Shown: one piece after another, positions 14,939 through 64,000 of the stretch | Position numbering within the stretch: position 1 is the stretch's first letter | Layout of the letters: each line of letters opens with the position of its first letter | Assembly: GCA_947491025.1 (NCBI GenBank) | Contig: CANLIC010000002.1 | Coordinates: 197,123 to 261,122 of the forward strand | From: Myxococcales bacterium | Lineage (GTDB): Bacteria > Myxococcota_A > UBA9042 | Direction: 5' to 3' | Length of the DNA: 64,000 nt | Position numbers and translations under genes: made by a program | The notes under the pieces: generated by a model | The model's database searches: none | Told to the model about the DNA's origin: nothing | The model's input: the letters and a program-made list of their open reading frames with translations, nothing else

Positions 14939-15031
14939 CGACGCCTCCCGCTCCGTCGCGCAAGGTAGCAGCCTCGCTGTCGCTTCACCAGATGCGGCGC
15001 TTCGCTCTGCACGGCGTGGCTGCCCAGGGGC

Positions 15032-16684: not shown

Positions 16685-16685
16685 C

Positions 16686-17707
<1,022 letters not shown>

Positions 17708-17711
<4 letters not shown>

Positions 17712-19486
17712 CGAGGCTCCTCTGCCGGCCCGGCTCCGTGACCCGCCGCAGCGACCGCTGATGGCGCAAGCCTACCGCCTTCGACCGCTATGGCGCCAGC
17801 CACCTCGCGGATCGCTGGCGAGGAGCGCTCGCCGCGGCCATGGAGCCCGGCGGGTCTGGTGTGACTCAGCACGTGCTCGGCCCACTCGATTTCAGCGGCG
17901 AGGCTGGCAAACCGGCCGCGGTCGATGGGTTCGGCGGCCAACGCCACCTCGCCGAAGGCGGCGACGACCTCGTCGAGGCGGCGCGCCGTCGCGCGGGTAA
18001 TGCCACCTTGGGCACGCAGGCGCTCGATCAGCGGCGGTAGACGGGCCAGCGAGGCGTCGGGGGCCGGCTCCTCTGTGGCGTCTGCAGCGCCTCCCCCCGG
18101 GCGCAAAGGCGCAGGGCGCCGAACGCCACTGGGGTCGTCACCCTCGAGCTCGCGCGCGGCAGCGTGGAGGCGTCGGGCAAGGCGCTGCGCCAGCAGCCGC
18201 GCCGGCTGCCGAAAGTCGGCCTCGGGCCGCATCATCCACGCTTCGATGGTCTCCTGCAGGCGCCCCCGGGCGGGTGCGCCCCCAGCGCTCGGCGGCAGGC
18301 GTGGCGGCGGCAGCCGCCCGAAGCGCCACAGGGGCAGGAGCAGCGCGGCCAATGTCAGCGCGCCCCCGAGCCAACGCGCGGCGGGTGTCCGCAGGGCCGC
18401 CGCGAGGCCGTCCAGGGCCGCGGCCAGCGCCTGCAGCGCGCCCGGCGGGCGGCCGCTCGGCCTGAGATCGGGGGCCGGCCGAAAGACGCCGGACACCTGG
18501 GCCAGGTTCGGCAGCAGGGCGACCTGGCAGGGCTCGCCGCGGAAGCAGCCCCACCGCATCAGGTTGGCCGCGAACTGCTTGTTGCCGTGAAAGGTCCGCA
18601 GCATGCCGTCGATGAGCACGCTGGAATCGGCGAGCGCGAGGACCCGGCCGCGACCGAGCTGCACTTCGCTGAGGAACGACCGCACGCCATCCTCGTAGCG
18701 GCCATGCACATGGCGGGCGATCGTGCCACGCTCATGGCGCGTGGCGGCGCCCGCAGGCTCGGTATTGGCAGCGGCCTGACTGGTGATCGCCGCGGGGTGG
18801 TTGAGCACCAGCTCGTGGACCTGATAGCCGAGCACCCCGCCGAGCGCCGCGCCGGGAAACCGCAGCAGCCCTGGCCGGCCCTCCACGAGCCCGGGCGCCG
18901 CGCCGGGCCTGTCGTGGAGCGCGAGGCCGAACGGCTCCATCCAGCTTGCGCCGGCACGAAAATCGTCGGCGATGATCAGCCTGCCGCCCGCGCGGACAAA
19001 GGCCAAAAGCTGTTGTCGTCCGTCCGTTCCGAGGACGACGGTGGGCGCCACGACGACCAAAATCTCGTCGCCGCGCAAGGACGCAAAATCCAGCGTGCGA
19101 CGCACCTGGAGCTTGACCTCCGCCTCCTCGGCCGTGGTCCGCAAGTAGCGCAGCGCGTTCCATCCCGGACGATCCGGGTCGAAGTCGACGCCCGTCGCGT
19201 CCGGCAGCGATCCCTCCGCCCAATCCATTGCGGCCGTGGCTTGGCCCGCCGCCGCTCCGGCCTCCGCCGCTGCGCGCGAGACCGCCACTCCCGTCGTCGC
19301 GGCCTTCGCAGGCGGCAGCGGCCCCGCCCAGGCGGCCGTGAGCGCCGAGGATCCCAGCGCCGCGGACGCCGCCACCGCGAGGCCGAGCGCGACCCGCACA
19401 GCCGCGCCCCCCCGAGCGCCAGGCCCAACCTTCGGGCACTTGACCTCAAGGCGCGCGCGCCCGCGCCAGGCGGCCTGGATGCTCAC
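17708..19486 (-). CDS. MoxR-operon accessory protein with a signal peptide, a periplasmic DUF4350-like domain, one TM helix and a cytoplasmic tail.
   Basis: There is a 4-nt overlap with moxR. N-terminal signal 'VALGLAVAASAALGSSA'. The 'LLAFVRAGGRLIIADDF' region resembles DUF4350/GldG-like domains that accompany MoxR-DUF58. TM helix 'LGGALTLAALLLPLW'. The family assignment is tentative. Confidence 0.55.
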
Positions 19487-49859: not shown

Positions 49860-49989
49860 CGGCGGCCTTGGTCGGGGTGTCGAGGCCCCGCTGGGCGCCG
49901 CGCCGATCGTCGTTTCCCGATGCAATTTTCCCGCCCACGCGACATCTTGCAGGGACGCATGCGGCCAAGTGCCGCCGAGGGAGCACGCC

Positions 49990-51024
49990 ATGGTTTGGGG
50001 ACCCACCAACCGGCCGCAGCCGGGACAGCAACAGCAAGGCCCGCAGACCGGCCCCCACGCCCCCGGCGGCGGTGGACCGGCGCAAACGCCCCAGGCCCCG
50101 GCGGCTCCCGGCGGCGGCGCGCTGAGCAATCCGCTCTTCTCGGGCGATCACGTCCTGGAGCAAGTCGCCAAGGGCAACGGCACCTTGCGCAAGGGCAGCC
50201 GTGGCCCCGCCGTGCGCGCTCTACAGACCTACCTGAGCAGCGTAGGCCTCGGCTCGATGCTCGGCCGCGCTGGCCCGGACGGCGACTATGGCACCGGCAC
50301 CGTGAACGCGGTCAAGGCGTGGCAGAAGGCCAAGGGCCTCGGCGACGACGGCGTGGTCGGCGCCGACACCCTGGCGCGCATGGACAAAGACACCGCGCAG
50401 GTACAGGCGCCGCAGCCGACGACCCAGAACGCCGCCAACACGTCGGCGCCGAGCGCCGGCGCGCCGGGCAGCCGCAACGGCGGGTTGCCGGCCGACTTCC
50501 AGAAGATGTGGGACGCCCACCCGCACAACTACCTGGCAGACAGCAGCCAGAACATCGACAGCGCCAAGCTGCAAGAGCAGCAGGGCTGGAGTCCCGACCA
50601 GTACTCCAACACCTGCGCCATTCGCCTCTCGATCATGTGGAACCAGCTCGGCGGCGGGTATCGGCTCACGCCAGAGAAGGCCAAGGCCGCCGGCCTCGAT
50701 CCGGGCCGCTTGCCCTACTCGCGCAAGACCGGCTGGTACTACATCCTCTCGGCCAAAGAGATGTGGATGTACATGGAGAAGCACATGGGCAAGCCGCATG
50801 CCCAGTGGCCGGCGAACGGCAAGCGCTTCAAGGACGGGGCCGCGTTCGACGAGGAGTTCCGCTCCAAGATCGAGCCCGAGATCGCCGGCCGCAAGGGCGT
50901 CGTGGCCTTCGACAAGATCTTCGGCTACTCGGGCACCGGCCACGTCGACATCTTCAACGGCACGCAGCTGTCCGACGCCGCGAGCTGGTACCCCTGCCAG
51001 TCGCTCAAGGTCTGGTACATCTAG
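49990..51024 (+). CDS. Peptidoglycan-binding domain (PG_binding_1) fused to a Tae4-family (papain-like Cys/His) gamma-D-glutamyl-mDAP amidase domain; no signal peptide.
   Basis: PG_binding_1: 'LRKGSRGPAVRALQTYLSSVGL ... DGDYGTGTVNAVKAWQKAKGLGDDGVVGADTLARM'. Tae4-like catalytic motifs 'NTCAIRLSIMWN' (compare Tae4 'NACPIRMSYVLN') and 'GTGHVDIFNGT' (compare 'RGHVTLWNGS'). The N-terminus 'MVWGPTNRPQPGQQQQGPQTGP...' is Gln/Pro/Gly-rich and low complexity. Start trimmed to the ATG at 49990. Confidence 0.75.
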   Translation: MVWGPTNRPQPGQQQQGPQTGPHAPGGGGPAQTPQAPAAPGGGALSNPLFSGDHVLEQVAKGNGTLRKGSRGPAVRALQTYLSSVGLGSMLGRAGPDGDYGTGTVNAVKAWQKAKGLGDDGVVGADTLARMDKDTAQVQAPQPTTQNAANTSAPSAGAPGSRNGGLPADFQKMWDAHPHNYLADSSQNIDSAKLQEQQGWSPDQYSNTCAIRLSIMWNQLGGGYRLTPEKAKAAGLDPGRLPYSRKTGWYYILSAKEMWMYMEKHMGKPHAQWPANGKRFKDGAAFDEEFRSKIEPEIAGRKGVVAFDKIFGYSGTGHVDIFNGTQLSDAASWYPCQSLKVWYI

Positions 51025-51330: not shown

Positions 51331-52986
<1,656 letters not shown>

Positions 52987-53019
52987 GCCGATGGCCGCAG
53001 ACGCAGGAAGAGGCGTGGC

Positions 53020-53805
53020 CTAAGCGTTGGCGCGGGCCCGCAGCAGCAGCGCCGCCATCTCCAGCCAGCCATCCGCTGCTTCAGCGACGACGTAGCGCGG
53101 CAGGGCGGGGATGACCGCGCGCTGCTCGAGGACCTGCGCGCAGCCGACCGGTAGCCCAAAGCGCCCCGGCAGCCAGAAGCCGGCGTCATTGGGCGCGTCG
53201 CCGATGGTCAAGATCGCGTCGGCCATGACGCCCTCGCCGGCCAGCAGATCGAGCACCGCCCTGCCCTTGTCGGCGGGGTCGAGGCTGAGGTGAATGTGGA
53301 CGTTGCTCCACAGCAGGTGCACGCCCAGCGCCTCGGCCCTTTCGCGCATCGCAGCCAGCGCGGCGTCTTCGCGGCCGTCGCGTTCAAAGGCGAGGTCGCA
53401 GAGGCGGCAGAAGGCGTCCTCGGCCTCGCGCAGCGGCGGGTCGTGGGCGATGGCGGCGGCGACGGCGCGCAAGCGCTCACGATCGGGGCGTTGGTAGAGG
53501 GCGGTGACGGCCCGGCCCGGTTCGACCAGCGCGAGGCCGTTCTCGGCCAGGGCGCGGCGGACACCGGGCAGGTAGCGCGCGAGGCCCAGCACCTCGCCGG
53601 CGGGGCGGCCGCTGACCGGCAGCACCTCGACGCCCGCGCGGACGAGGGCCGTGATGGCGGCCATCACCTCGCCGTCGAGCCGGCCGTCGCGGGTCATGGT
53701 GCCGTCGATGTCGCTGGCCACGAGGCGAATCGCCCGCAGCTGCGCCCCATCGGCGGTGGCGAGGGGCTGCGGCTCGCGCTCGGTTTCGTGCGGCGGTTGG
53801 CTCAC
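53020..53805 (-). CDS. HAD-superfamily hydrolase (HAD-IIB, Cof/sugar-phosphate phosphatase-like).
   Basis: Motif I 'LVASDIDGTMT'. The C-terminal 'TIGDAPNDAGF' is a motif IV DxxND-like element. A 4-nt overlap links it to the upstream TPR gene. Confidence 0.7.
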   Translation of the reverse strand: MSQPPHETEREPQPLATADGAQLRAIRLVASDIDGTMTRDGRLDGEVMAAITALVRAGVEVLPVSGRPAGEVLGLARYLPGVRRALAENGLALVEPGRAVTALYQRPDRERLRAVAAAIAHDPPLREAEDAFCRLCDLAFERDGREDAALAAMRERAEALGVHLLWSNVHIHLSLDPADKGRAVLDLLAGEGVMADAILTIGDAPNDAGFWLPGRFGLPVGCAQVLEQRAVIPALPRYVVAEAADGWLEMAALLLRARANA

Positions 53806-54986
53806 GCGCCGGCTCCAGCCTGCAGCTCGCGCAGGCGCCTTCGCAGCCGACGTGCGTCCTCAAAGCGTCGCTTGGGCAGCTTCAAGTAGGCCTCGTACTG
53901 AACGATGGCGCCGGGCTTGTCGCCGGTGGCGTCGAGCACCTCGCCGAGGGTCATGCGTGCCAGCGGGGAGCTCGGCTCCAGCGTCGCCGCCTCGCGCAGC
54001 CGCTCGATCGCGTCGGCTTTGCGCCCGGCGAGCAGCAGCGCCCGGCCGAGCGCGACGTGGTTCTCGACCTGCGGCCTGATGCGCTCGAGGTCGGCCTCGC
54101 CCTCGACGATGGCGTCGGCGACACGTCCGACGTGGCTGAGCACAACGACGCGCAGCGCCCGGGCCTGGGCGTAGCCCGGACGGTAGACCAAGGACTTGTC
54201 GACGGCGTCGAGCGCCTGCGCCCAGCGATGGCGGGTGGTGTAGGCGAGCCCGAGATTGTAGAGCGCGCTTGCGTGGTTGGGCGCCTCTCTGAGCGCGGCG
54301 TTGTAGGCATCGATGGCGTCTGACCACTGGCCACGGCGCAAGCGGGCGTTGCCGAGGTTCACCAGCACACGCACATCTTTGGGCGCCACCTTGTGGGCCT
54401 GCTCCAGCGCGCTGAGTGCGGCCTGTTCCTCACCGTGCTCCATGAAGAGCACGCCGAGGTTGGACCAACCGCCGTAGAGCGCTGGCTGCAGCGCGACGGC
54501 CCGCTCGAGATGGGCGCGAGAGAGGTCGAATTCCCCGGCCTCCATGTGGATGAGGCCCAGATGGTAGTGCGCGGTCCAGCTCTTGGGCTCCTTCTGGACG
54601 TAGGCCTGGAGGTGCCGTTTGGCCGCCGCGACATCGCCCTCGCGCAGCGCGCGCTGGCCGTCCGCGAGTCCGTCGCGCAGCGGTTCAGCCTCGACGCCGC
54701 TGCCGATCGGCGCATTGGAAGTGGCGCGGTCTTCGTCGTAGAGCAGCGCGCCGGCGCCGCCGCAGGCGACAAGCACCGCGAGAGCGGGCAGGAGGCGTGA
54801 GGGAAGGCGCAGGCGTCGTGCCAACGTCGACGCGGGCTCAGTCGGCGGGCGGGCATACATGGCCGGCAGGCTAGTGGGTCGCGGGGCGGATCGCAACCTT
54901 GCCCTGCGAAAGGCCAGGGCGAATCGCGCGGGATCACGCGGCCGGAGTGCGCCAGCGCCGGCCACCTGCGGCCCGCCGCGAGACAC
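53802..54986 (-). CDS. Secreted tetratricopeptide-repeat protein.
   Basis: Signal and TM 'LLPALAVLVACGGAGALL', then at least seven TPR units (W-LG-Y-A-F-A-P patterns such as 'AHYHLGLIHMEAGEFDLSRAHLERAVALQP'). Confidence 0.8.
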   Translation of the reverse strand: MSRGGPQVAGAGALRPRDPARFALAFRRARLRSAPRPTSLPAMYARPPTEPASTLARRLRLPSRLLPALAVLVACGGAGALLYDEDRATSNAPIGSGVEAEPLRDGLADGQRALREGDVAAAKRHLQAYVQKEPKSWTAHYHLGLIHMEAGEFDLSRAHLERAVALQPALYGGWSNLGVLFMEHGEEQAALSALEQAHKVAPKDVRVLVNLGNARLRRGQWSDAIDAYNAALREAPNHASALYNLGLAYTTRHRWAQALDAVDKSLVYRPGYAQARALRVVVLSHVGRVADAIVEGEADLERIRPQVENHVALGRALLLAGRKADAIERLREAATLEPSSPLARMTLGEVLDATGDKPGAIVQYEAYLKLPKRRFEDARRLRRRLRELQAGAGA

Positions 54987-57900
54987 TCAAGGCGCTGGCG
55001 CAGAACCGCCAAGGGGCGCCAATTCGCCCGCGCCATCGCTGGCTTCGACGCGCAGCCCGGCGACAGCATGCCAGCGGGCGGCGCCATCCCAGCCGGTGCT
55101 GCAGAGCCAGCGGCCATCGGGCGAAAAGGCGACGGCCGACACCCGCTGGGTGTGGCTGCGCAGCACAGCGACGGGCTGGCCGGAGGGCCAGCGCAGGACG
55201 TGGACGCCGCCGGAGAGTGTCGCCACGGCCAGCAGATCACCGGTCGGCGCCAGTGCCAGGTCGAAGATGCGCTCGCCCTCGATGGCGTACGCCGGCCCCG
55301 CGCTGCCGTCCTGTAGCGAGAACGCCTGGACGAACCCAGGCTTGGCGGCGATGAGGGCGCGACGGGACGGGTCCATCTCGCAGACTTCGCCGCCCGGCAG
55401 GGTCGCGACACGGCGCATGCGCGGCATCGCGGCGCCCTCGACCTCGAAGGCCACCAAGGCGCCGTGCACGTCGACCGCGCAGGCGAGGCGTCCATCGGCG
55501 GAGGCCGCACCATCGAGCCCCGCCCCAAGCTCCTGGCCCAAGGCCTGCCACGGTGCAGCGGCGTCGGGCGGCACGACGTCGATGGACGACGAGTAGGAGA
55601 GCAGGAGGCGCCAGCCACCGGCCAGCTCGATGACGCGCCGCCGCCCGTTGATCTTGGGCTCGGGCCGCGGGCGCAAAGCGCGGTCCAGGCTCCGCAGACC
55701 CGGCTCACCGGCGAGCGCTGCGCTGAGCCGGCTGCCGTCGATGGCGAAGGCGACCGCCTTGGTCACACCCTCTGCGGCGGGCATGCCGCCGACCTCGACG
55801 CCATCGCGGGTGCGAAAGACGCGGACGCGCCCGCGCCCGTCCGCGAGGGCCAGCCGCTCGCCGTTGGGTTCAAAGGCCAGCGAGGTCAGGCCGGTTGGCG
55901 GCCCGGGCGGAAGAAGCCAGGGCGCCATCGGGCTGGGCAAGCGCAGGCGCTGCAGCTCGGCGCCGTCGCGCAGCCAGATCTCAGGCTCGATGTCGCCGCC
56001 CGGGCGCGCTGCGGCGGCGGGGACGGCAAATGCTGCGTCCTGCCCTGAGAGTCGCAGCAGGAGTGCGCCGTCTTCGACGCGGACGACGCCGACGCCCTGC
56101 TCGCCGACGACGAGGGCGTTGGGCGCGCCGCGGGCTGTGTCGAGCGCGCGCACCTGGCCGAGGCCGTAGTCGCGCTGCCAGCCCACTGGGGCGCCCGGAT
56201 CGGCTGTGAAGGTGCCGACCATGCCGTCGTGGCAGCCGATGAGCCATGTCCGGGGCGACCCCGGCAGGGCGCCTGTGGCCTCGGCGATGGCGATGGCGCC
56301 GCGGTGGGCACTGCCGAAAGGCGTCTCACGCCGACGCGCGCCGGCTGCGACAGCGAGGGCCTCGGGGGCCGCTTCGAGCGCTGTGGCCGCGATCGGCAGC
56401 TCGATCAGCGTCGCATCGCTGCAGATCACGGACAGTCCGCCGCCGTCGCGCCAGATCGCTGCCGCCATCGCGGTGCTCGTACCGCAAAGGGGCAGGTCGA
56501 TGGCGGATTCGGCGGCGGCGCGCTGCAGGCTGACGAAGCCGCCGCCGAGCCGCAACGCGGCCAAGGCGCCATGCAGGCGTGAAGGCCCCGGCTGCCACCC
56601 TGAACCGCCCATCGTCGGCAGCGCCTGCGAGCGGACGTCGCCACCCGGTCCAAGGCGCGCGACCTCGCCGCCCAACGTCGCCCAGACGCCCTCGGCGTCG
56701 AGGCGGGCGTCACGGGCATCGCTGGGATGGCGCCAGCGCACGGCGCCCTGGACGCTGAGGTCGAGCAGGGCCAGGCTACCAGCGCCACGGCAGAGCACGG
56801 CGTCGCCGGTCGCGCCTGGCTCCTCGTCGCGCGCCCACGCGAGCGCATGGCACCGCTCGGGTAGCGTCAGGGTCGCAACGACGCTCGGCCGCGCCATCGC
56901 CATCGTCGATGCCAGCACGGCGCGGCCGCGTGCGACGTCGGCAGGTGCCAGCGCGCCCGAGATCGCTAGCGCCCGCGCGGCTGGCGCCTCAGCCTCGAGC
57001 AGGCGGCCGGCCGCCAGGTGTCCCTCGGCGGCCGTCAGAAGCGCCGCACCGAGGGCCCTGTCCGCCGCAGCGCGGGCTGACGTAGCCGATGCCTCGGCCT
57101 GCAAGGCGCGGTCACGCTCGCGCTGCAGGCTGAAGAAGGCGAACGCGACGACGGCGATGAGCAACAGAAAGGCGACGGCAGCGACGCGCAGGGGCGCCCG
57201 CCAGGCCCGCATCAGCCGCTGGAGCTGCTGTCGCGGCGAGTAACGGTAGGCGGCGACGGCCCGGCCATCGACCAAAGCCTCAAGGTCCTCGAGCAAGGCG
57301 CCGGCGTCGGCGTAGCGCTCGGCGGGCGAGCGAGCGGTCGATTTGGCGAGGATCGCCTGCAGCTCGGCGGGCGCCTCATCGATGGCGCCTGCGGGCGAAA
57401 AGAGCGCCTGCAGGGTGCGGCCGAGGGCGTAGACGTCGCTGCGGGCGTCGGCGCCGGCCCCCGGGCCCGAGAGCAGCTCGGGCGCCATGTAGCCGGGGGT
57501 GCCGACCACAGCCTTGGCGGCCCGGCGGTCGACATCGTCGCGCAGGTCCAGGGCGAGGCCGAAGTCGCCGACCTGCGCGACTCCGCTCTCGTCGAGGAGC
57601 AGGTTCTCGGGCTTCAGGTCGCGGTGGATGATGCCCTGGCGGTGAGCGTGGCCGATGGCGGCGATCGCAGGCAGCAATTGCCGCAGCAGGCGCATCCGTT
57701 CGCCGAGGGTTTCCGCGGCCGAGATGGCGTCGGCGAGGGTGCGACCGGGCAGCAGGCGCATGGTGTAGAAGGGCTGGCCGGCGGCATCGAGCCCGGCGTC
57801 GTGGATGGCGACGATGCCGGGGTGATCGAGGCGCGCGGCGATTTGCGCCTCGTGCCGCAGCCTGGCCACATCTGCGACGGAGGCCGTGGCCCCGATCGCC

Positions 57901-58160
57901 AGCGACTTGCGGGCGACGCGCCGGCCGAGCCGGCCATCGGTGGCGGCGATGACTTCGCCCATGGCGCCGCGCCCGAGCAGCCCGCCGGTCTGATAGCGAT
58001 CGGCCTCGGAAAGGGCGAAGTCGTCGGGCTTGCTGTCGCCGTCTCCAGGGACGCCGCTGGCCGCTGCGTTGGCGTCGGCGCCCCAATCCCAGCCGCTGGC
58101 GGCGCGCAGCTTGGGCGCGGCGTCTTCGGGCTCGCCGTCGCGCGCCTCAGGTCCGGTCAT
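54987..58160 (-). CDS. Transmembrane Ser/Thr protein kinase with a large extracytoplasmic WD40/PQQ-like beta-propeller region.
   Basis: Start at the ATG at 58160, giving a 14-nt overlap with the upstream FHA gene. Kinase motifs 'LGRGAMGEV', 'HRDLKPENLL' and 'DFGLA'. TM helix 'VAAVAFLLLIAVVAFAFFSL'. The repeats 'AVAFSPDGRWLCSTGWDGAARW' and 'LAFEPNGERLALADGRGRVRVF' are WD-like. Confidence 0.85.
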   Translation of the reverse strand: MTGPEARDGEPEDAAPKLRAASGWDWGADANAAASGVPGDGDSKPDDFALSEADRYQTGGLLGRGAMGEVIAATDGRLGRRVARKSLAIGATASVADVARLRHEAQIAARLDHPGIVAIHDAGLDAAGQPFYTMRLLPGRTLADAISAAETLGERMRLLRQLLPAIAAIGHAHRQGIIHRDLKPENLLLDESGVAQVGDFGLALDLRDDVDRRAAKAVVGTPGYMAPELLSGPGAGADARSDVYALGRTLQALFSPAGAIDEAPAELQAILAKSTARSPAERYADAGALLEDLEALVDGRAVAAYRYSPRQQLQRLMRAWRAPLRVAAVAFLLLIAVVAFAFFSLQRERDRALQAEASATSARAAADRALGAALLTAAEGHLAAGRLLEAEAPAARALAISGALAPADVARGRAVLASTMAMARPSVVATLTLPERCHALAWARDEEPGATGDAVLCRGAGSLALLDLSVQGAVRWRHPSDARDARLDAEGVWATLGGEVARLGPGGDVRSQALPTMGGSGWQPGPSRLHGALAALRLGGGFVSLQRAAAESAIDLPLCGTSTAMAAAIWRDGGGLSVICSDATLIELPIAATALEAAPEALAVAAGARRRETPFGSAHRGAIAIAEATGALPGSPRTWLIGCHDGMVGTFTADPGAPVGWQRDYGLGQVRALDTARGAPNALVVGEQGVGVVRVEDGALLLRLSGQDAAFAVPAAAARPGGDIEPEIWLRDGAELQRLRLPSPMAPWLLPPGPPTGLTSLAFEPNGERLALADGRGRVRVFRTRDGVEVGGMPAAEGVTKAVAFAIDGSRLSAALAGEPGLRSLDRALRPRPEPKINGRRRVIELAGGWRLLLSYSSSIDVVPPDAAAPWQALGQELGAGLDGAASADGRLACAVDVHGALVAFEVEGAAMPRMRRVATLPGGEVCEMDPSRRALIAAKPGFVQAFSLQDGSAGPAYAIEGERIFDLALAPTGDLLAVATLSGGVHVLRWPSGQPVAVLRSHTQRVSAVAFSPDGRWLCSTGWDGAARWHAVAGLRVEASDGAGELAPLGGSAPAP

Positions 58161-59043
58161 CGACGGTGTCGCCGGGGTAGAGCAGCAGCTCGACCTGGCC
58201 GGTGCCGCCGGCGCGCACGAGGTCTGGGCGGATGCGCTCGTCGCGGAGTCGTCGCCGCAGTCGCGCCACGCTGACGTCCCATTTACGGCGGAGCTGGGCG
58301 CGGTCGCCCTCGTCGCGCCAGATCTCGCCGGCGACAACCTCCCAGCTGGTTGGGCCCGCCAACGTCACCAGCTCGCTCAGGATGCGGGCGCCGATGCCGT
58401 CCAATGCGCTCGGCGCCTCGCCAGCGCGGTGGATGTGGACGGTGTCGTAGGCGGCGACGATGTGGAGCTGCGCCACCAATCCGCCCTCGACGCGGGTGCC
58501 GACGCCGGCGCCCTCCAGCGAGACACCGAGCGAACGCAGCGCGAAGCCCTCGACGTCGATGACCTCGCCAGGCTCGAGATCGCGCGCAGGCTGGCCCCGG
58601 ACCTGAATGCGATAGCGCTCGCCGACGGGCCAGAGGTGGGCGGCGGCATGTTCGACGTAGCGTCCGACCAGCGAGGGCCGCGGCGAGAGCAAGAGGCTGC
58701 TGCTGCCGGCCAGGATCTGCCGCGCCAGCCCTTCGCCCTCGACCGCGAGCACGGCCTTGGGCAGCTCGACCTCCAGCACCGAGAAGAGCAGCCCCGGCGC
58801 CAGCTCGAACTCGACGCCCGGCTGCAGCACCAGGTCCTGCAAGGGCTTGCCGTCGACAGCGAACATGCCGCGCAGGCCGAGCAGGCGCAGCTCGCCGCCG
58901 CGCAGGCTGACCATGGCGTGGGCCTCGGAGACGCGGGCGTCGTCGACCATCAGCGCCGCCGACGGCATGCGGCCGATGAGGTCGCCGGCGCCGAGCACCA
59001 CCGAAGACTCGTCGGGCGCCAAGAGGCGGACCGTCGCGCGCAT
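58147..59043 (-). CDS. FHA-domain protein with a C-terminal OmpR/PhoB-type winged-helix (Trans_reg_C-like) DNA-binding domain.
   Basis: Start trimmed to the ATG at 59043, because the track ORF upstream is Ser/Arg junk overlapping the MFS gene. FHA: 'VVLGAGDLIGRMPSAALMVDDARVSEAHAMVSLRGGELRLLGLRGMFAVDGKPL'. The C-terminus 'LSELVTLAGPTSWEVVAGEIWRDEGDRAQLRRKWDVSVARLRRRLRDERIRPDLVRAGGTGQVELLL' matches the Trans_reg_C pattern. Confidence 0.65.
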   Translation of the reverse strand: MRATVRLLAPDESSVVLGAGDLIGRMPSAALMVDDARVSEAHAMVSLRGGELRLLGLRGMFAVDGKPLQDLVLQPGVEFELAPGLLFSVLEVELPKAVLAVEGEGLARQILAGSSSLLLSPRPSLVGRYVEHAAAHLWPVGERYRIQVRGQPARDLEPGEVIDVEGFALRSLGVSLEGAGVGTRVEGGLVAQLHIVAAYDTVHIHRAGEAPSALDGIGARILSELVTLAGPTSWEVVAGEIWRDEGDRAQLRRKWDVSVARLRRRLRDERIRPDLVRAGGTGQVELLLYPGDTVDDRT

Positions 59044-59056
59044 CGCCAACGCCTGC

Positions 59057-60607
59057 CTAATGGCCGCCGCCGGCGCCCTTGGGTGCTGCGTTCCACATGC
59101 GGCCGGCGAGCACGAGGCCGATGACGGCCACGGGCAACATGACCAGCGGCCAAATGAGCCAGTTCTCGACCTGCTTCGCCGCGGCCTCTTTCGGCAGCAG
59201 CCCAGCGTAGAGCAGCGCCTGCAGGCCGGAGCCGAGGTAGACGAGGCCATCGATGATGCCGACCGCGACGCCGACATTGCGCTTGCCGCCGAAGTCCATG
59301 CTCGCCGTCCCCGAGAGCATGCCGTGGACGCCGATGATGCAGAGCGACATGGCGACGACGATCCAGCCGCTGAGCCCGGTCGGGCCCTGCAGCGCGGCCC
59401 AGAGCGAGATCGCGCCGACGACCATGCCGCCATAGAGGAAGGCCGACACCGGCCCGCGCCGCGACTGGAAGAGCCTGTCCGAGATGACGCCGGCGAACAT
59501 GCCGCCGAGGATGCCGGCGACGCAGAGCATCATGCCCCAGTTGGCGAAGGCGAAATCGCCGATGTGCCCGGTCGCTTTGGCGAAAACGATGCCGTACTGC
59601 ATGATGGCCTGGCGCAGGAAGCCCGAGCAGAACTCGATGGCGGCGATGATGAGGATGACCGGGTTGGTCAGCATGCGCCGCCCGACCTCGAAAACGCCGA
59701 GCCGTGGCCCGGTGTCGCCTGACGACGCGTCGCCGGTGTCGAAGTCGAGCTGGCCGGCATCGCCGGGCGTGTCGCGCACCCACATCGTGGTCGTCACCGC
59801 CAGCACGCCGAGCAGTGTCGCCGGGATGAAGAAGACCCACCACACCTCGCGGGCGCCGGCCGCGGCTGCGCCAATGGTCGCGCCCGCGCCTGCCACGGCG
59901 ACGCTGCCTGCGCCGGCGATGAGCGGTGCGTTGTCGACGATGAGGCGTCCCCAGTCGTAGGCGAAGTAGACGCCGAGCGAGATGAGGATGCCGAAGATGC
60001 CGCCGAACACGCCCCGCTCGCGGACATGGAACCAGGCGGCGTTGACCTTGACGATGGAGACCGCCCCAAAGCTCTGGAAATACATGTTGATGGCGTAGAG
60101 CACCGAGTAGGTCGCCGCCACCTCCGGCCCCTTGTGCAGCAAGCCGAGGTTGCCGGTCAGCAGGTCCATGGTGGCCACGCCCATCAGCAGGTTCGCGATG
60201 GAGGCGCCGATGGTGGCGAAGATCATCGTCTGGCGGCCGCCGACCCTGTCCGCCAGCGGGCCGTTGATGAGGAAAGAGAAGCCGTAGACGATGGTGCCGA
60301 CGCCGAAGATCTGGGAGAAGTCCGCGATCGACATCAGATCGCCGAGCGCGTTCTTGCTGACCGTCAGGTTGTAGCGGCCCATGTAGAGGAAGGAGTAGGC
60401 GAGGCCGAGCGGTAGCCAGTTGAAGCGGCGGCGGACGATGAACGCGGGGCTGTGGCCGAGGTCGACCTTGGGCAGGCGGCCGACGATCAGGGCGATGACG
60501 ACCAGCAGCAGCACGATCGGGGCCAGTTGCTCGTACCAAATCGGGGCGGCTGGCTGGGACATGTTGGGCTCCGGCGTCGCCGCGACCGGTCGGACGAGGC
60601 GCCTCAA
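59057..60607 (-). CDS. MFS transporter (organophosphate:Pi antiporter/UhpC-GlpT-like).
   Basis: 12 predicted TM helices. 'LGLAYSFLYMGRYNLTVSKNALGD' resembles the OPA-family N-terminal signature. The overlapping ORF 58950..60635 in another frame was rejected. Confidence 0.8.
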   Translation of the reverse strand: MRRLVRPVAATPEPNMSQPAAPIWYEQLAPIVLLLVVIALIVGRLPKVDLGHSPAFIVRRRFNWLPLGLAYSFLYMGRYNLTVSKNALGDLMSIADFSQIFGVGTIVYGFSFLINGPLADRVGGRQTMIFATIGASIANLLMGVATMDLLTGNLGLLHKGPEVAATYSVLYAINMYFQSFGAVSIVKVNAAWFHVRERGVFGGIFGILISLGVYFAYDWGRLIVDNAPLIAGAGSVAVAGAGATIGAAAAGAREVWWVFFIPATLLGVLAVTTTMWVRDTPGDAGQLDFDTGDASSGDTGPRLGVFEVGRRMLTNPVILIIAAIEFCSGFLRQAIMQYGIVFAKATGHIGDFAFANWGMMLCVAGILGGMFAGVISDRLFQSRRGPVSAFLYGGMVVGAISLWAALQGPTGLSGWIVVAMSLCIIGVHGMLSGTASMDFGGKRNVGVAVGIIDGLVYLGSGLQALLYAGLLPKEAAAKQVENWLIWPLVMLPVAVIGLVLAGRMWNAAPKGAGGGH

Positions 60608-60707
60608 GGATGGACCCGCTGGGGGCGCGCGGCAAGGGCGGGGCCGGAGCTGGGCTGGGCCACGGCGCGGGAGATCGCTGTCACAGGACCGTGTGCGCGC
60701 CGAACCG

Positions 60708-61394
60708 CTAGCGCAAGCGCAGCGCCTCGCGGGCAGCGTCCGGCCGCGGCAACAGGGCCTCCTGCGTCAGCGGCCCCTCGCGCACCAGCAGCCAGTAATC
60801 CGGCAACGGCACATCGAAAGCCAATGCGTCCGTCGGGCCAACGCGAAAGATCTCCCAGCCGAGCAGCAGCTCCATCGAGCCGGCCTCGACGGCCACGAGC
60901 GGGCAACGGCCAGCGCGCGCCGGCCAGTCCCAGAGGTGGTTTCCGGCGTAGCGGTACTCGAGGTAGTGCGATCCCTGCCAGCCGCGCGGGAAGCGCAGGC
61001 CGCGCGCCGACCGCACCTCGTAGTGGCCGAACGCGAGCTGCGCCCCGGCCCCGTCGCGGCGAGGCGCAGGCGGCGAGGCCCAGCCCGTCTGCTCGACCTT
61101 GACGTTCCAGCCGCGCAGGACATCGGTCACGGGGTCGCGGTGAAAGGTCTTGCGGAAGGTGCGCCACAGCAGCGCGTGCATCCAGGCCGGCAGCGAGAGA
61201 TCGATGCCGGTGTAGCTGGTATCGGCGAGCGCATCGAGGTCGAGCGGCGCGGCGGTCTGGACGATCTCGTGCAGCGTGCGGGCGTCGGCAGCGACGAGGG
61301 CAGCGATGCGGGCGGCGCGGGCGGCGTCTGCCTGTGATGCCTGCGCGGCTGCTGCCGGCGAAGCAGACGGAGCGGCGTGGGAAGGGCCTTGCAT
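60708..61394 (-). CDS. Hypothetical protein.
   Basis: 228 aa with no recognised motif. It lies immediately downstream of the GMC oxidoreductase with a 0-nt gap. Confidence 0.4.
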   Translation of the reverse strand: MQGPSHAAPSASPAAAAQASQADAARAARIAALVAADARTLHEIVQTAAPLDLDALADTSYTGIDLSLPAWMHALLWRTFRKTFHRDPVTDVLRGWNVKVEQTGWASPPAPRRDGAGAQLAFGHYEVRSARGLRFPRGWQGSHYLEYRYAGNHLWDWPARAGRCPLVAVEAGSMELLLGWEIFRVGPTDALAFDVPLPDYWLLVREGPLTQEALLPRPDAAREALRLR

Positions 61395-62875
61395 CAGCAG
61401 ATCTCCTCGGGTGATGCCCCGGCGACGCGCGCGGCGCAGAGGGTGGCGAGCGCGGCGATGGCGATCTGCGGGTTGACGCCGGTGGAGGTCGGAAAGACAC
61501 TAGAATCAGCCACATAGAGCCCGTCGACGGCGTGATGACGGAAGTCGGGGCGCACCACGCTGGCGGCCGGGTCGCTGCCCATGCGGCAGGTCCCGAACAT
61601 GTGGGTGATCGCCGCCGAGTAGGCCATGGGCGATCGCGGTCCGGAGTGTTCGAGGGCCGCCAACTCCGCAGGATGACGGACATCGCGAGAGAAGCCGCGG
61701 ACGCCGACGTCGACGCGCTCGGCGCCGGCGGCGAGGAACATGCGGCCCATCACCGCCGCGCCGCGTCGGAAGCTGGCGACGTCCTCGCTGCTCGGGCTCC
61801 ACTGCACGAGGGTGCGGCCGGCAACGAGGCGCACCCTGCCCTCGGCGCGCGCCCGGACGGCGACGCCCCAGTCGAGCCAATGCGCCAGCTCGGCGACCTC
61901 GGCGCTGAGGGCGCGCCCGACCCCGGCCATGCGGGCGGCGAGCACGGTGAGATCGAAGCCCAGCGTCTCGAACTTCAGGCCCTCATGGCGCAGCCCGATC
62001 ACCTCTTGGCCCTGGGTGGCGCCCTCCCACATCCGCACCGGCTCGCGGAAGTAACCGGCCGCCGACACGCCGGGATGGCACTGAAAGTGGCGACCGACCG
62101 GGCCATGACCGATGCGGCTACGCAGCAGCAGCGCTGGGGTCTGCACCGCGCTCGCCGCCAGCACGATGGCGTGGTCGGCGTGGCAGATGAACTCGCCCTC
62201 CGGGCCCCGGCAACGCACGGCGCGCGCCCTGCCCCCGACGACGTCGACCGCCAGCGCCTCGGTCTCCGTCAGCAGCCGTAGGTTCGGGCCCAGCGCTGGC
62301 GCCAACAGGGCGAGGTCGAACGAGCGCTTGCGGCCCGCCGGGCAGCCTTGCATGCAGCGGCCGAGGCCCTCGCACTCCGGGGCGTTGCGGCGAATCGGCC
62401 GGTGCTCGAGCCCGAGCGCCTCAGCGCCAGCGGCCATGAGCGCCGCCTTGCGCCCGGCGATCGCGGCGGGCGTCGGCGCGACGCCGAGCGCAGCCTCGAT
62501 GCGGTCCGTCACCGCCTCGATCGCCGCCCATGGCAGCGCCTCGTGGAGGGCCGGGTCGCGCCGCAGCCAACCTTGGTGGACGTCCTCCGGCAGCCGCCAG
62601 CAGATGGCGCCGTTGGTCGGCGAGGCGCCGCCGACCATGCGCGCCTGGATGTACGGCAAGGGTGCCCGGCCGAGGACCACCTGCGCGCCCATGCCGCGCC
62701 AGTCGCGCGCCATGCTGGAGAACGCCGGCAGCGGAAAGTCCGGCGGTTTTCGCCAAGTCCCAGCCTCTAGCACCAACACCGAGAGGCCGCGCCGCGCCAG
62801 CTCGACCGCAGCGGCGCAGCCGGCGGGGCCGCTGCCGACGACGACAACGTCGGCGCGCAGGTCGCCGGCCCTCAT
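61394..62875 (-). CDS. GMC-family FAD-dependent oxidoreductase.
   Basis: Start trimmed to the ATG at 62875, since the track ORF to 63304 has an Arg-rich leader. FAD motif 'DVVVVGSGPAGCAAAVELARRGLSVLVLEAG'. The C-terminus 'GTCRMGSDPAASVVRPDFRHHAVDGLYVADSSVFPTSTGVNPQIAIAALA' is the GMC_oxred_C region with the catalytic His. Confidence 0.85.
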   Translation of the reverse strand: MRAGDLRADVVVVGSGPAGCAAAVELARRGLSVLVLEAGTWRKPPDFPLPAFSSMARDWRGMGAQVVLGRAPLPYIQARMVGGASPTNGAICWRLPEDVHQGWLRRDPALHEALPWAAIEAVTDRIEAALGVAPTPAAIAGRKAALMAAGAEALGLEHRPIRRNAPECEGLGRCMQGCPAGRKRSFDLALLAPALGPNLRLLTETEALAVDVVGGRARAVRCRGPEGEFICHADHAIVLAASAVQTPALLLRSRIGHGPVGRHFQCHPGVSAAGYFREPVRMWEGATQGQEVIGLRHEGLKFETLGFDLTVLAARMAGVGRALSAEVAELAHWLDWGVAVRARAEGRVRLVAGRTLVQWSPSSEDVASFRRGAAVMGRMFLAAGAERVDVGVRGFSRDVRHPAELAALEHSGPRSPMAYSAAITHMFGTCRMGSDPAASVVRPDFRHHAVDGLYVADSSVFPTSTGVNPQIAIAALATLCAARVAGASPEEIC

Positions 62876-63303
62876 GGCGCGTCCGCCGGCGGCAGCGTGT
62901 CGAGTGGCGCCGCGCCGCGAAAGGCCTGCTGGCTGCGCGGATCGTCGAAGTAGGCGAGCGCGGCGACGAGGCGCAGCACCTCGATCAGTGGCGCCAGCAG
63001 CGCGCCGAGGACGGGCAGATCGCCGGCGCGGTGCAGGGCGGCGTCGCGGCGTTCGGGATCGGCGCCGCTGCCGGCACAGCCCAAGGCGCCGAGGTAGAGC
63101 ACGCCGACGATGAGCACCGCGGCGTCGAGGCCGAGGCGGAGGTGCAGCGGCGCAGCGGCGGCAAAGCGGGCCCAGAATTCGGGCCAATCGAGGGTGTCCC
63201 AATCTGGCGCGCTGGGCAGAGGGCGCGGAAGGACGGCCGCGAGCAGGCGCTCGCTGCGCGGCCTGCGCTCCAGCTTGCCCTCGCTCGCGCTGGCCAGCGT
63301 CCA
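62872..63303 (-). CDS. Possible small two-TM membrane protein translationally coupled (ATGA) to the GMC oxidoreductase. The 5' end is undefined.
   Basis: The frame is open from 63627 to 62872, but its upstream part overlaps ung and is Ser/Thr/Arg-rich. The 3' part encodes 'LGLDAAVLIVGVLYLGALGCAG ... LPVLGALLAPLIEVLRLVAALAYF'. There is no in-frame ATG after 63627, so a non-ATG start is needed. Confidence 0.3.
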   Translation of the reverse strand, partial: WTLASASEGKLERRPRSERLLAAVLPRPLPSAPDWDTLDWPEFWARFAAAAPLHLRLGLDAAVLIVGVLYLGALGCAGSGADPERRDAALHRAGDLPVLGALLAPLIEVLRLVAALAYFDDPRSQQAFRGAAPLDTLPPADAP

Positions 63304-63421
63304 CCTCCTCGTCTCGACACGGTAGTGCCGGGCGTCGGCGCTGGCGAGGGGCCTCCGCGAGCGGTCTCGATGGGGCGTAGGCCCAGGCGTGGTGGACCAG
63401 CTCGGCGTCGGCCGCGGCGGT

Positions 63422-64000
63422 TCAGTCCGGCAGGCGCCAGTCGATCGCGGCCGAACCGTGCGCGACGAGGTAGGCGTTGGCGCGGGAGAAGTGCCGGCAG
63501 CCGAGAAAACCGGCGTGCGCCGAGAGCGGGGAGGGGTGCGGCGCCGTAAGCAGCAGGTGCCGTTTGCCGTCGAGGAACGCCGCCTTGCGCTGGGCGTGCC
63601 GACCCCAGAGCAGAAAGACCAGGCCATCGCGCTCGCGATCGAGGGCTTGCAGCACCGCGTCGGTGAAGGGCTGCCACCCCTTGTCGGCGTGGCTGCCGGC
63701 CTGACCGGCGCGGACCGTCAGCGAGGCGTTGAGCAGCAGCACGCCCTGGCGCGCCCAGGCGCTGAGGTCGCCATGGCGTGGCCGCGGCAGGCCGAGATCG
63801 CTCTGCAGCTCGCGGAAGATGTTGGCGAGCGAAGGCGGCACCTCGACGCCGCGCCGCACCGAAAACGACAGGCCATGTGCCTGCCCTGGGCCGTGATAGG
63901 GGTCCTGGCCGAGCAGGACGACGCGCACCTGCTCGAATGGCGTGGAGTCGAGGGCGGCGAAGATCTCGGCGGCAGGTGGGTAGACGGCCTGGCCAAGCTC
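63422..64000 (-). CDS. ung: Uracil-DNA glycosylase (family 1 UNG); its N-terminus continues beyond the window edge.
   Basis: '[22 protein letters not shown]' is the UNG water-activating loop. The in-frame upstream translation '...[20 protein letters not shown]' matches the UNG 'VYPP...F.AF....F' region, so the track's listed GTG start at 63928 is internal. Confidence 0.9.

Follow-up and report, generated by a model that had tools for sequence, protein, structure and literature searches.

Five genes that follow each other closely on one strand raise the question whether they form one signalling pathway or whether the functional unit is smaller than the run of genes in which it lies. Within the window (the whole stretch analysed, 64,000 nucleotides of a contig from a Myxococcales bacterium), the first-pass annotation had joined an MFS transporter, a regulator with FHA domain and winged helix, a transmembrane Ser/Thr kinase, a TPR protein and a HAD phosphatase into a single cassette, whereby the TPR protein was considered a possible co-sensor and both the transporter and the phosphatase were considered possible outputs. 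Here, regulator and kinase are suggested to constitute, probably, a two-gene Ser/Thr signalling module rather than parts of a five-gene cassette, for which a switch consisting of a linker threonine (Thr183), the FHA domain and the winged helix is proposed.

Layout of the locus

All five ORFs were recovered on the minus strand at the coordinates assigned before (Table 1), and three of the four tight junctions were exact: reading the sequence gave a 13-nt gap between the MFS stop (59057) and the regulator ATG (59043) and a 14-nt overlap of the kinase ATG (58160) with the regulator stop (58147), while the GTG of the HAD gene (53805) overlaps the TPR stop (53802) by 4 nt (GTGA). The remaining junction, between kinase and TPR gene (54987/54986), amounts to 0 nt only if GTG 54986 is taken as TPR start. 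An independent gene call, available for an ENA contig near-identical to the window (L083, 99.90% identity), starts this gene at ATG 54860, which leaves 126 nt behind the kinase gene and gives the protein a signal peptide of normal lipoprotein type, closed by the lipobox L-V-A-C. The same gene call places the MFS start at ATG 60562 rather than at TTG 60607. Moreover, position 60607 does not end the run, since further co-directional genes extend up to the UDG gene, and any upstream limit set for the cassette is therefore arbitrary. Scans of the five-gene block revealed neither sigma-70-like promoters (by consensus) nor convincing terminators, which at 71% G+C is weak evidence either way. Co-transcription of the MFS and regulator genes is likely given their 13-nt distance, and the MFS, TPR and HAD genes may be co-transcribed with the regulator-kinase pair in this genome.

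Table 1. Features of the locus, with coordinates in the window
Feature	Coordinates	Strand	Basis
HAD-IIB phosphatase, cytoplasmic, 261 aa, motif I DIDGT	53020..53805	-	TIGR01484
TPR lipoprotein, 352 aa from ATG 54860, lineage-specific downstream neighbour	53802..54860	-	Pfam, L083 gene call
Hanks-type Ser/Thr receptor kinase, 1057 aa, conserved partner gene	54987..58160	-	Pfam, motifs, adjacency
Kinase: extracytoplasmic domain, ~709 aa, predicted WD40-like	54990..57116	-	profile vs PDB, blade HMM
Kinase: single transmembrane helix, aa 319-348	57117..57206	-	hydropathy scan
Regulator, 298 aa, FHA / FHA-like / predicted OmpR-type winged helix, conserved core gene	58147..59043	-	AF2, family
Regulator: C-terminal winged helix, predicted OmpR/PhoB-type, aa 193-296	58156..58467	-	profile vs PDB, Pfam, hhalign, AF2
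Regulator: recognition helix of the winged helix, RRKWDVSVARLRRRL			
Regulator: Thr183 codon, inter-domain linker, candidate phospho-acceptor	58495..58497	-	conservation, AF2 disorder
Regulator: second, degenerate FHA-like beta-sandwich, aa 97-175	58519..58755	-	AF2 sub-model, Foldseek
Regulator: N-terminal FHA domain, aa 1-93	58765..59043	-	Pfam, Foldseek, conservation
MFS transporter, 501 aa, ~10-12 TM, lineage-specific upstream neighbour	59057..60562	-	Pfam
Hypothetical protein, 228 aa	60708-61394	-	
GMC oxidoreductase	61394-~62870	-	
UDG	63422-	-	

Conservation of the pair and of its neighbours

GTDB species genomes contain 327 loci of the regulator family, all of them in Myxococcota-type MAGs and Paraliomyxa miuraensis. 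At 50% identity (E<=1e-3) the family falls into 896 clusters, and it is length-invariant (~298-300 aa, nearly all clusters ~300 aa). Neighbourhoods were counted for the best 80 of the 327 loci. In 62 of these, the next gene downstream, read in the same direction, encodes a homologous kinase; in 5 the kinase gene is divergently oriented and in ~4 it lies immediately upstream, so that a kinase gene adjoins the regulator gene in any orientation in ~71 of 80. No other family recurs beside the pair in more than 7 of the 80 loci. The pairing is thus conserved, and both partners diverge jointly: regulator distances correlate with those of the kinase domain (Mantel r 0.87) and of the ectodomain (r 0.89; p = 0.001 and partly confounded by species phylogeny). 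Among the same 80 loci, at least 11 assemblies encode 2-3 regulator paralogues, which share 43-58% identity within a genome and vary at positions of the recognition helix. The 14-nt overlap is also present in the close orthologues L081 and L082, and regulator and kinase appear to be translationally coupled, cognate partners. The earlier proposal of these two as a functional pair consequently stands.

The three remaining genes behave differently. The MFS gene is kept beside the pair only in L001, L081 and L082, the TPR and HAD genes only in L001, and none of the three was found next to it in the other ~77 loci examined. Elsewhere, the flanks of the pair frequently lie on the opposite strand (downstream in 14 of 27 loci, upstream in 16 of 28), and its co-directional neighbours have functions unrelated to one another. 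MFS transporter, TPR lipoprotein and HAD-IIB phosphatase are therefore lineage-specific neighbours outside the conserved system.

These data bear on the view that all five genes are one operon and one pathway, in which the TPR protein would aid the ectodomain in sensing a periplasmic cue while the MFS protein (as organophosphate importer) and the HAD phosphatase would be regulated outputs. Close spacing in one direction, the lack of predicted terminators and the likely co-transcription across the 13-nt gap are in line with it, as are the identical set and order of the five genes in L001 and the linkage of the MFS gene to the pair in L081 and L082. In L001, however, collinearity continues to the fumarase gene, which identifies the shared order as general synteny, and in L081 and L082 an AHSA1 gene is inserted between the MFS and regulator genes. 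Further, the likely TPR start opens the 126-nt gap behind the kinase gene, and the position of the regulator gene downstream of the MFS gene does not obviously place the transporter under the regulator's control. Among the neighbours, the MFS protein matches Pfam MFS_1 (E 2e-18), the TPR protein Pfam TPR families (down to 8e-33) and the phosphatase TIGR01484 (HAD-IIB; 47.4, cut-off 41.8) and Hydrolase_3 (6e-7), with TA0175, listed as hypothetical protein, as PDB match (E 4e-6). The previous designation of the transporter as OPA-type, however, was not retained, as OPA-family NCBIfam models score far below their cut-off (91 vs 407.75), and no PDB match was obtained for the protein. Considering that only regulator and kinase recur, the one-pathway interpretation is unlikely, and with it the assignment of co-sensor and output functions, for which no recurrence beside the pair was found outside the closest relatives.

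The receptor kinase

The kinase matches Pfam Pkinase (1e-33) and WD40 (1e-11), and its catalytic motifs (G-loop, VAxK, HRDLKPxN, DFG, GTPxYMxPE) are intact. The hydropathy scan identified one hydrophobic segment (peak 2.84), and the partner kinases of related loci possess the same architecture with a single TM helix. Searched against the PDB, the ectodomain profile retrieved the WD40 proteins 2ymu (7e-99) and PkwA (5yzv, 5e-71, the second-best match), whereby these matches cover only profile positions ~520-640. Canonical WD40 repeats are restricted to the last ~120 aa, and an iterated blade HMM detected weaker repeats from ecto-residue ~75 onward; C211 and C232 are invariant. The earlier description of a single TM helix followed by an extracytoplasmic domain holds, and so does, as judged from its sequence, the probable WD40-like nature of the latter. 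PkwA-type kinases likewise fuse a Hanks kinase to C-terminal WD40 repeats, whereas in the window kinase the TM helix between kinase and repeats places the repeats outside the cytoplasm, and across most of the ~700-aa region the divergence is too great for WD40 models to match.

Domain structure of the regulator

The regulator, for which NCBIfam holds no name, was modelled by AF2 with a pLDDT of 89. Its N-terminal FHA domain exceeds the Pfam gathering cut-off when the trimmed protein is used (21.5 bits vs 20.7), is matched in 38 of 40 homologues and resembles the FHA domains of GarA, FhaA, EmbR and OdhI (Foldseek, E ~1e-5, TM 0.66-0.78). All 120 of 120 homologues share G24-R25, S39-E40-A41-H42 and R58, among them the two principal pThr ligands, R25 and S39. 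Nonetheless, the domain is non-canonical: the conserved Asn expected in the beta6-beta7 loop gives way to an invariant R58-G59, and the phosphate-binding Ser is directly followed by Glu (E40), a position usually basic or Asn in canonical FHA domains. As a consequence of both deviations, pThr binding is not assured. The second, FHA-like sandwich (sub-model pLDDT 88.5) is devoid of phosphopeptide-binding motifs and has weak Foldseek matches to the FHA domains of MDC1, EssC and Rv0020c (E 0.02-0.15, probability 0.9-0.99). The linker that follows harbours Thr183, which is kept in 120 of 120 homologues and falls into the sole segment with pLDDT <50 (aa 181-188); position +1 is Arg in 70% and position +3 is Asp or Glu in 52% of the homologues. 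By conservation and modelled disorder we infer Thr183 to be the putative phospho-acceptor.

Some FHA interactions were reported to be independent of phosphorylation, and a functional pair may be envisaged in which this holds for the regulator too, the kinase acting by another route such as direct phosphorylation of the DNA-binding domain. The invariant Glu40 and the lost Asn would fit this, as would two properties of the kinases: no Ser/Thr is present in the activation loop of the window kinase, and apart from the P+1 loop the kinases revealed no conserved Ser/Thr that could serve for docking. The invariance of R25, S39 and H42 argues otherwise, and an invariant Thr within a disordered linker is what one would expect of a phospho-acceptor, which renders a phosphorylation-independent FHA domain improbable.

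For the C-terminal domain, the regulator profile retrieved the DNA-binding domain of AdeR from the PDB (E 0.0029), and OmpR/PhoB DNA-binding domains make up 7 of the 10 matches at E<=10. Pfam Trans_reg_C is matched in 7 of 40 homologues (best E 1.3e-3), the winged helix of the window regulator itself remaining below Pfam significance. Alignment by hhalign to the DNA-binding domains of E. coli PhoB and OmpR (P 0.005 and 0.008) brings helix 3 into register, and the AF2 model comprises a beta-sheet, then three helices and a hairpin; Foldseek matches the domain only weakly to OmpR-type DNA-binding domains (E 0.13-0.64). Within the domain, conservation peaks in the recognition-helix signature R-x-x-D-V-x-x-x-R-L-R-x-x-L, which aligns in register with PhoB, OmpR and AdeR. 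Hence, the FHA assignment made before is upheld, and the winged helix, although very divergent, still appears to be OmpR-type.

This divergence, which keeps the window protein below Pfam significance and goes along with weak Foldseek matches, could alternatively mean that the protein is a kinase adaptor or regulator and no transcription factor, its FHA domain docking on the kinase and its winged-helix-like domain serving protein-protein contacts or localisation. Consistent with this, the regions upstream of the pairs yielded no common DNA motif, and neighbouring target genes are not conserved. On the other hand, the strongest conservation coincides with the recognition helix, most PDB profile matches are OmpR/PhoB DNA-binding domains (7 of 10) and the paralogues vary at positions inside this helix, making an adaptor function unlikely.

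Proposed mechanism and relation to known systems

For the favoured two-gene module we infer that Thr183 is phosphorylated, that the FHA domain binds pThr and that the regulator binds DNA and controls a regulon, steps which would be connected as follows. The large, fast-evolving WD40-like ectodomain of the single-pass Hanks kinase would sense a signal outside the cytoplasm, whereupon the activated kinase would phosphorylate Thr183 in the disordered linker. The regulator's FHA domain would then bind pThr183, either in cis, as in a GarA/OdhI-like switch, or in trans, resulting in dimerisation (receiver domains dimerise as well), and this binding would alter DNA binding by the winged helix.

Among known systems, PknH-EmbR of Mycobacterium tuberculosis comes closest; it consists of a Hanks receptor kinase and, encoded next to it, an OmpR-like transcription factor that contains an FHA domain. 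Both systems combine a membrane Ser/Thr kinase with a regulator joining FHA domain and OmpR-type winged helix. Phosphorylation by PknH is reported to enhance EmbR binding to embCAB promoters, and EmbR is reported to be a substrate of several kinases, namely PknA, PknB, PknH and PknJ (review PMC6213207). The regulator described here differs in its one-to-one relation with an adjacent kinase, such pairs having been multiplied as paralogues, and the kinase differs from PknH by its WD40-like ectodomain. One of the top structural hits for the regulator's FHA domain is that of EmbR (2fez/2ff4, E ~1e-4). EmbR is arranged as winged helix, BTAD and C-terminal FHA domain, whereas in the regulator the FHA domain is followed by the FHA-like sandwich, the linker and the C-terminal winged helix; no Pfam match to BTAD was obtained for it, and it is shorter (298 aa vs 388 aa for the EmbR chain in the PDB).

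The actinobacterial switch proteins GarA and OdhI, which match the FHA domain best in structure (6i2p, 7rj3, 4qcj; TM 0.66-0.78), are phosphorylated by a kinase on a Thr in a flexible segment, to which their own FHA domain subsequently binds, and this is the logic proposed for the regulator. Yet GarA and OdhI lack a DNA-binding domain and control metabolic enzymes, carry their phospho-acceptor in an N-terminal ETTS motif instead of the proposed internal linker, and do not share the Glu after the phosphate-binding Ser or the absence of the loop Asn. In Myxococcus xanthus, certain NtrC-like enhancer-binding proteins possess an FHA domain in place of the receiver domain and link Ser/Thr kinases to transcription, but through a sigma-54 AAA+ activator instead of an OmpR-type winged helix, and they are not known to form one-to-one pairs with a neighbouring WD40-ectodomain kinase.

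As in OmpR/PhoB two-component systems, a membrane sensor kinase gene adjoins that of a cognate winged-helix regulator sharing the recognition-helix signature, and the pairs were multiplied as paralogues with partners diverging together. Unlike in these systems, receiver domain, Asp phospho-acceptor and histidine kinase are missing, and the proposed chemistry is Ser/Thr phosphorylation with the FHA domain as reader. The regulator-kinase pair hence looks like a two-component system transposed to Ser/Thr phosphorylation, the regulator being in effect an OmpR-type response regulator whose receiver domain was swapped for phosphothreonine-reading hardware.

Gene organization of the region

The window (G+C content 71%) is chromosomal DNA, which carries amongst others gyrB and the genes of an SMC protein, the succinate dehydrogenase flavoprotein (sdhA), a xanthine-dehydrogenase-type enzyme, a class I fumarase and UDG. 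With gyrB, SMC, sdhA, fumarase and UDG the window is ordinary chromosome, and its interpretation as a mobile or defence island was rejected for this reason. Between positions 52639 and 64000 it was found to be 99.90% identical to the ENA metagenome contig L083 (sample ERZ27265269), and the closest GTDB genome is the wastewater Myxococcota MAG HK-STAS-MYXO-50, whose regulator locus is referred to as L001. Gene starts were checked against the sequence and against an independent gene call on L083, whereby the five minus-strand open reading frames reported by the first-pass annotation were found to be present as described (Table). The tight junctions claimed along with them are found between the MFS and regulator genes (gap of 13 nt), between the regulator and kinase genes (overlap of 14 nt) and between the TPR and HAD genes (overlap of 4 nt, GTGA), whereas the distance from kinase to TPR gene is 0 nt only when the GTG start of the latter is used and amounts to 126 nt with its ATG start. 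With the ATG start the protein has a plausible signal peptide of the lipoprotein type that ends in L-V-A-C, the long open reading frame possesses a single hydrophobic segment (aa 63-84), and RRLRLPSRLLPALAVLVAC-GG matches the lipobox pattern [LVI][ASTVI][GAS]C; the TPR protein is thus predicted to be a lipoprotein.

Table. Positions of the genes in the window and of the domains within the regulator
Feature	Position	Strand	Remarks
MFS transporter	59057-60562	-	501 aa
Regulator	58147-59043	-	298 aa
Ser/Thr kinase	54987-58160	-	1057 aa
TPR protein	53802-54860	-	352 aa; alternative GTG start at 54986, 394 aa
HAD phosphatase	53020-53805	-	261 aa
Regulator, FHA domain	aa 1-93		AF2, Foldseek, Pfam
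Regulator, second beta-sandwich	aa 97-175		weak FHA resemblance
Regulator, OmpR/PhoB-type winged helix	aa 193-296		mainly profile evidence
Kinase-TPR gap	54861-54986	-	sigma-70-like pair
GMC oxidoreductase and 228-aa protein	60708-62870	-	1-nt overlap
PG_binding_1/Tae4 protein	49786-51024	+	both domains in one protein
Second Ser/Thr kinase	8866-12174	-	canonical WD40 propeller
Dicty_CTDC-repeat/MAM-domain protein	12191-15031	-	946 aa
DUF58 and DUF4350 proteins	15032-19519	-	downstream of the second kinase

Upstream of the MFS gene the same-strand run goes on with a 228-aa hypothetical protein, a GMC oxidoreductase and UDG, and hence the upstream edge of the proposed cassette is arbitrary. A promoter and terminator scan of positions 52500-64000, which is uninformative at 71% G+C, detected no promoter-like sites, and its terminator-like sites did not exceed chance level. 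The kinase-TPR gap holds the hexamers TTGCGA and TAGCCT, separated by a 17-nt spacer and ending 7 nt before the ATG, a weak sigma-70-like pair below the scan threshold; a TPR-HAD transcript started from it would be leaderless. The GMC oxidoreductase and 228-aa genes lie between UDG and MFS, the 228-aa protein matching no Pfam or NCBIfam family. In L001 and in the related loci L081/L082 the MFS gene comes directly after an OmpA-like gene, and neither of the two genes was found in the available sequence upstream of MFS; both look like a local insertion in the lineage of the window. To this insertion we attribute that, when the sequences preceding MFS were aligned for the window, L001 and L081/L082, the blocks common to L001 and L081 had no counterpart in the window. 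On the other strand, the window encodes a protein combining PG_binding_1 and Tae4 (type VI secretion amidase effector 4) domains; no T6SS genes were seen among its examined neighbours, and the protein may act on its own as a secreted peptidoglycan amidase.

The MFS, TPR and HAD genes in related loci

For the MFS protein, general MFS_1 membership was the only assignment obtained. The OPA-type label given to it by the first-pass annotation is not supported, as its scores against TIGR00881 (91.1 versus a cut-off of 407.75), GlpT (50.2 versus 632.55) and UhpC (54.6 versus 564) are far too low and phmmer identified no PDB match at E<=0.001. The HAD assignment was confirmed: the protein passes the TIGR01484 cut-off (47.4 versus 41.8), possesses a DxDGT motif I (VASDIDGTM) and has TA0175 as closest structure (E 4e-6), and is accordingly classified from its sequence as a bona fide HAD-IIB hydrolase.

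All three genes accompany the regulator and kinase genes solely in L001 (regulator 62% identical), where collinearity runs on to the convergent fumarase gene, as it does in the window. In L081/L082 (65% identical) an AHSA1 gene stands between MFS and the regulator, which is followed by the kinase, and in the loci L002 to L004 (57-61% identical) MFS, TPR and HAD are already absent. Such a pattern is typical of general synteny among close relatives and does not speak for a functional cassette. In the source organism the genes may be co-transcribed, especially MFS with the regulator. The five genes had been read as one transcript and one phospho-relay, with the TPR protein as co-sensor and the HAD and MFS proteins as outputs; of this cassette, only the regulator-kinase module is conserved. 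The initial observation was therefore largely right and its interpretation half right. In annotation, the five genes should not be carried forward as one unit, and MFS, TPR lipoprotein and HAD should not be counted as part of the system.

A conserved regulator-kinase pair

The regulator belongs to a tight, unnamed family, for which a first search returned at least 455 homologues of about 298-300 aa. Among 185,579 GTDB species genomes 327 regulator loci were identified, and 896 clusters (50% identity, E<=1e-3) were obtained among 1.84 billion representatives. The best 80 of the 327 loci, which were searched with the window proteins, derive from Myxococcota-type MAGs and Paraliomyxa miuraensis, of which strain SMH-27-4 (L032) has a pair. 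Many of the MAGs with the pair are labelled Alphaproteobacteria, Rickettsiales, Enterobacteriaceae or Klebsiella, which are probably taxonomic mislabels of deposited bins. At least 11 assemblies of the best 80 loci possess two or three paralogues, and the paralogous regulators of one genome share 43-58% identity.

In 62 of these 80 loci a kinase gene follows the regulator gene immediately downstream on the same strand, the encoded partner kinase being composed of a kinase domain, one TM helix and a homologous ectodomain of 620-700 aa. In 5 of the 80 loci the kinase is divergent upstream, and in about 4 it directly precedes the regulator; the others are mostly truncated contigs or have no detectable kinase. 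Upon clustering of the neighbouring open reading frames of the 80 loci, no family besides the kinase occurred in more than 7 loci. Where a full-length downstream kinase is present, 14 of 27 genes following the kinase and 16 of 28 genes preceding the regulator have the opposite orientation, and co-directional neighbours are mutually unrelated (ECF sigma factor, EEP nuclease/phosphatase, FAD oxidase, CLC channel, GlgC, EF-G and Dicty_CTDC-repeat proteins). Pairwise distances of the regulators correlate with those of the partner kinase domains (r = 0.87) and of the ectodomains (r = 0.89; Mantel p = 0.001 for both), with the ectodomains diverging much faster (mean distance 0.73 versus 0.48). Conserved adjacency and correlated distances argue that the pair is inherited, and apparently was duplicated, as a unit. 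From these comparisons, the conserved entity is a two-gene receptor-kinase/FHA-winged-helix module, which is confined to Myxococcota and has multiplied into paralogues.

Domain structure of the regulator

The AF2 model of the regulator (pLDDT 89) comprises three domains. The FHA domain postulated by the first-pass annotation is corroborated by Pfam FHA (PF00498), which the trimmed 298-aa protein passes marginally (21.5 bits, gathering threshold 20.7) and which matches 38 of 40 homologues (best E 3.3e-7), and by its beta-sandwich fold, as Foldseek matched the FHA domains of GarA, FhaA, EmbR and OdhI with E 1e-5 to 1e-4, TM (target) 0.66-0.78 and rmsd 2-3 A. The phosphothreonine-binding motifs Gly-Arg and Ser-x-x-His are present as invariant G24-R25 and S39-x-x-H42, with R25, S39 and H42 each conserved in 120 of 120 homologues. 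The conserved Asn of the FHA beta6-beta7 loop is absent, the loop reading L-R58-G59 with invariant Arg, and Ser39 is followed by an invariant Glu where FHA domains are expected to have a non-acidic residue. On account of these two deviations the domain is considered an atypical FHA domain with putative pThr binding. Thr183 is likewise invariant (120 of 120 homologues) and resides within the sole disordered segment of the AF2 model (aa 181-188), a linker ahead of the winged helix; among the 120 homologues, position +1 is Arg in 70% and position +3 Asp or Glu in 52%.

Assignment of the C-terminal domain as OmpR-type winged helix was upheld in part. Profile similarity supports it: the family profile identified the AdeR DNA-binding domain in the PDB (E 0.0029), 7 of its 10 PDB matches at E<=10 are OmpR/PhoB DNA-binding domains, and hhalign with the DNA-binding domains of E. 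coli PhoB and OmpR (P 0.005 and 0.008) is in register at the recognition helix, with RRKWDVSVARLRRRL of the regulator aligned against DRTVDVHIRRLRKAL. Single-sequence hhalign and the PDB profile search were here used in place of a native OmpR-family profile. Pfam Trans_reg_C (PF00486), however, gave no match at E<=1 with the window regulator, hence the gathering threshold was not reached, and gave weak matches in 7 of 40 homologues (best E 1.3e-3). The AF2 secondary structure fits a sheet/three-helix/hairpin arrangement. Foldseek with the 96-298 sub-model, however, returned only weak matches (2hqn, the HP1043 DNA-binding domain, E 0.64; EmbR 2ff4, E 0.13) and no strong OmpR-type one, so that the assignment derives mainly from profile evidence. 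A tblastn search of the window and all loci with the E. coli PhoB/OmpR DNA-binding domains revealed just one canonical response regulator.

Paralogous regulators differ at recognition-helix positions, which is consistent with distinct targets. When the 250-nt stretches ahead of 77 regulator genes were searched for common k-mers, only G+C-rich ones came up, at control frequency, and no motif was found. As specificity may vary between paralogues, this search had low power.

The partner kinase

The kinase is of the Hanks type (Pfam Pkinase, 1e-33), with intact G-loop, VAxK, HRDLKPxN, DFG and APE motifs, as read from an alignment of 28 partner kinases. Most partner kinases start the activation segment with DWG, as opposed to DFG in the window kinase, whose activation loop contains neither Ser nor Thr. 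A search of the partner kinases for a conserved Ser/Thr docking site was negative outside the P+1 loop. One transmembrane helix spans aa 319-348, and the C-terminal region of about 709 aa (aa 349-1057) must be located outside the cytoplasm. This ectodomain is homologous among the partner kinases and possesses two invariant cysteines, C211 and C232. Its strong WD40 matches (2ymu, PkwA) involve only the last ~120 residues, where canonical repeats reside, and an iterated blade HMM followed weaker WD-like repeats back to residue ~75 of the ectodomain. The periplasmic propeller suggested earlier, which if complete would have about seven WD40 blades, is therefore plausible but only partly supported.

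The window encodes one further Ser/Thr kinase, whose WD40 propeller is fully canonical (Pfam Beta-prop_WDR3_1st, 1.4e-53) and which has no FHA-winged-helix partner. It adjoins a Dicty_CTDC-repeat/MAM-domain protein, and in L002 (L002:14033-16285) the FHA-paired kinase is likewise followed by a Dicty_CTDC-repeat protein, so there may be a recurrent association of kinase and secreted-repeat protein. The genes downstream of the second kinase encode DUF58 and DUF4350 proteins, DUF58 being typical of MoxR/BatA-type clusters.

Proposed mechanism and comparison with known systems

To our knowledge, few cognate pairs of kinase and transcription factor exist, such as PknH-EmbR. Of the characterised systems PknH-EmbR is the closest, as it likewise consists of a receptor Hanks kinase and an OmpR-like regulator with an FHA domain. 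In M. tuberculosis, phosphorylation was reported to enhance promoter binding of EmbR (PMC6213207). Regulators of the EmbR/SARP type possess an N-terminal winged helix followed by BTAD and a C-terminal FHA domain, whereas in the window regulator the order is reversed and an FHA-like domain is added; given this and the lack of a Pfam BTAD match, EmbR/SARP membership was rejected. Identity as a response regulator was also rejected, since no Response_reg match was obtained and the partner is a Hanks, not a histidine, kinase. No description of the regulator architecture was found in Pfam, NCBIfam or the literature searched, and the literature search returned no family of FHA-then-winged-helix regulators paired with WD40-ectodomain kinases, an absence which is no proof.

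The suggested mechanism assumes that the kinase would phosphorylate Thr183 of the regulator and that the FHA domain would bind pThr183, either in cis, resembling the GarA/OdhI switch, or in trans, resulting in dimerisation. This binding would gate DNA binding by the winged helix, and the FHA module would thereby take over the part that the receiver plays in response regulators of the OmpR type. Reservations about this mechanism arise from the atypical residues of the FHA domain, from the activation loop of the window kinase, from the negative search for a docking Thr and from the k-mer search that gave no motif. The pairs resemble two-component systems built from Ser/Thr parts, and pairs of histidine kinase and response regulator also duplicate as units. 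A genuine Ser/Thr two-component system, in which one-to-one pairs of kinase and regulator were duplicated and diversified as units and the invariant linker Thr, bound by the FHA domain of the regulator itself, takes the role of the receiver Asp, is a tentative reading to which we give somewhat less than an even chance.

Targets of bacterial Hanks kinases are described as pleiotropic, not exclusive (PMC4601284). The unnamed family of about 900 clusters, by contrast, bears the marks of dedicated pairs, in that the two genes keep a fixed adjacency with translational coupling, the partners diverge jointly and paralogues have multiplied. With Thr183, R25/S39 and the recognition helix a testable model is provided of how phosphothreonine signalling could take the place of the receiver in OmpR-type regulators. 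If the reading as a Ser/Thr two-component system is true, it would represent an independent bacterial invention of insulated, paralogue-specific phospho-signalling from eukaryote-like parts, and would offer a tractable system for kinase-substrate specificity.
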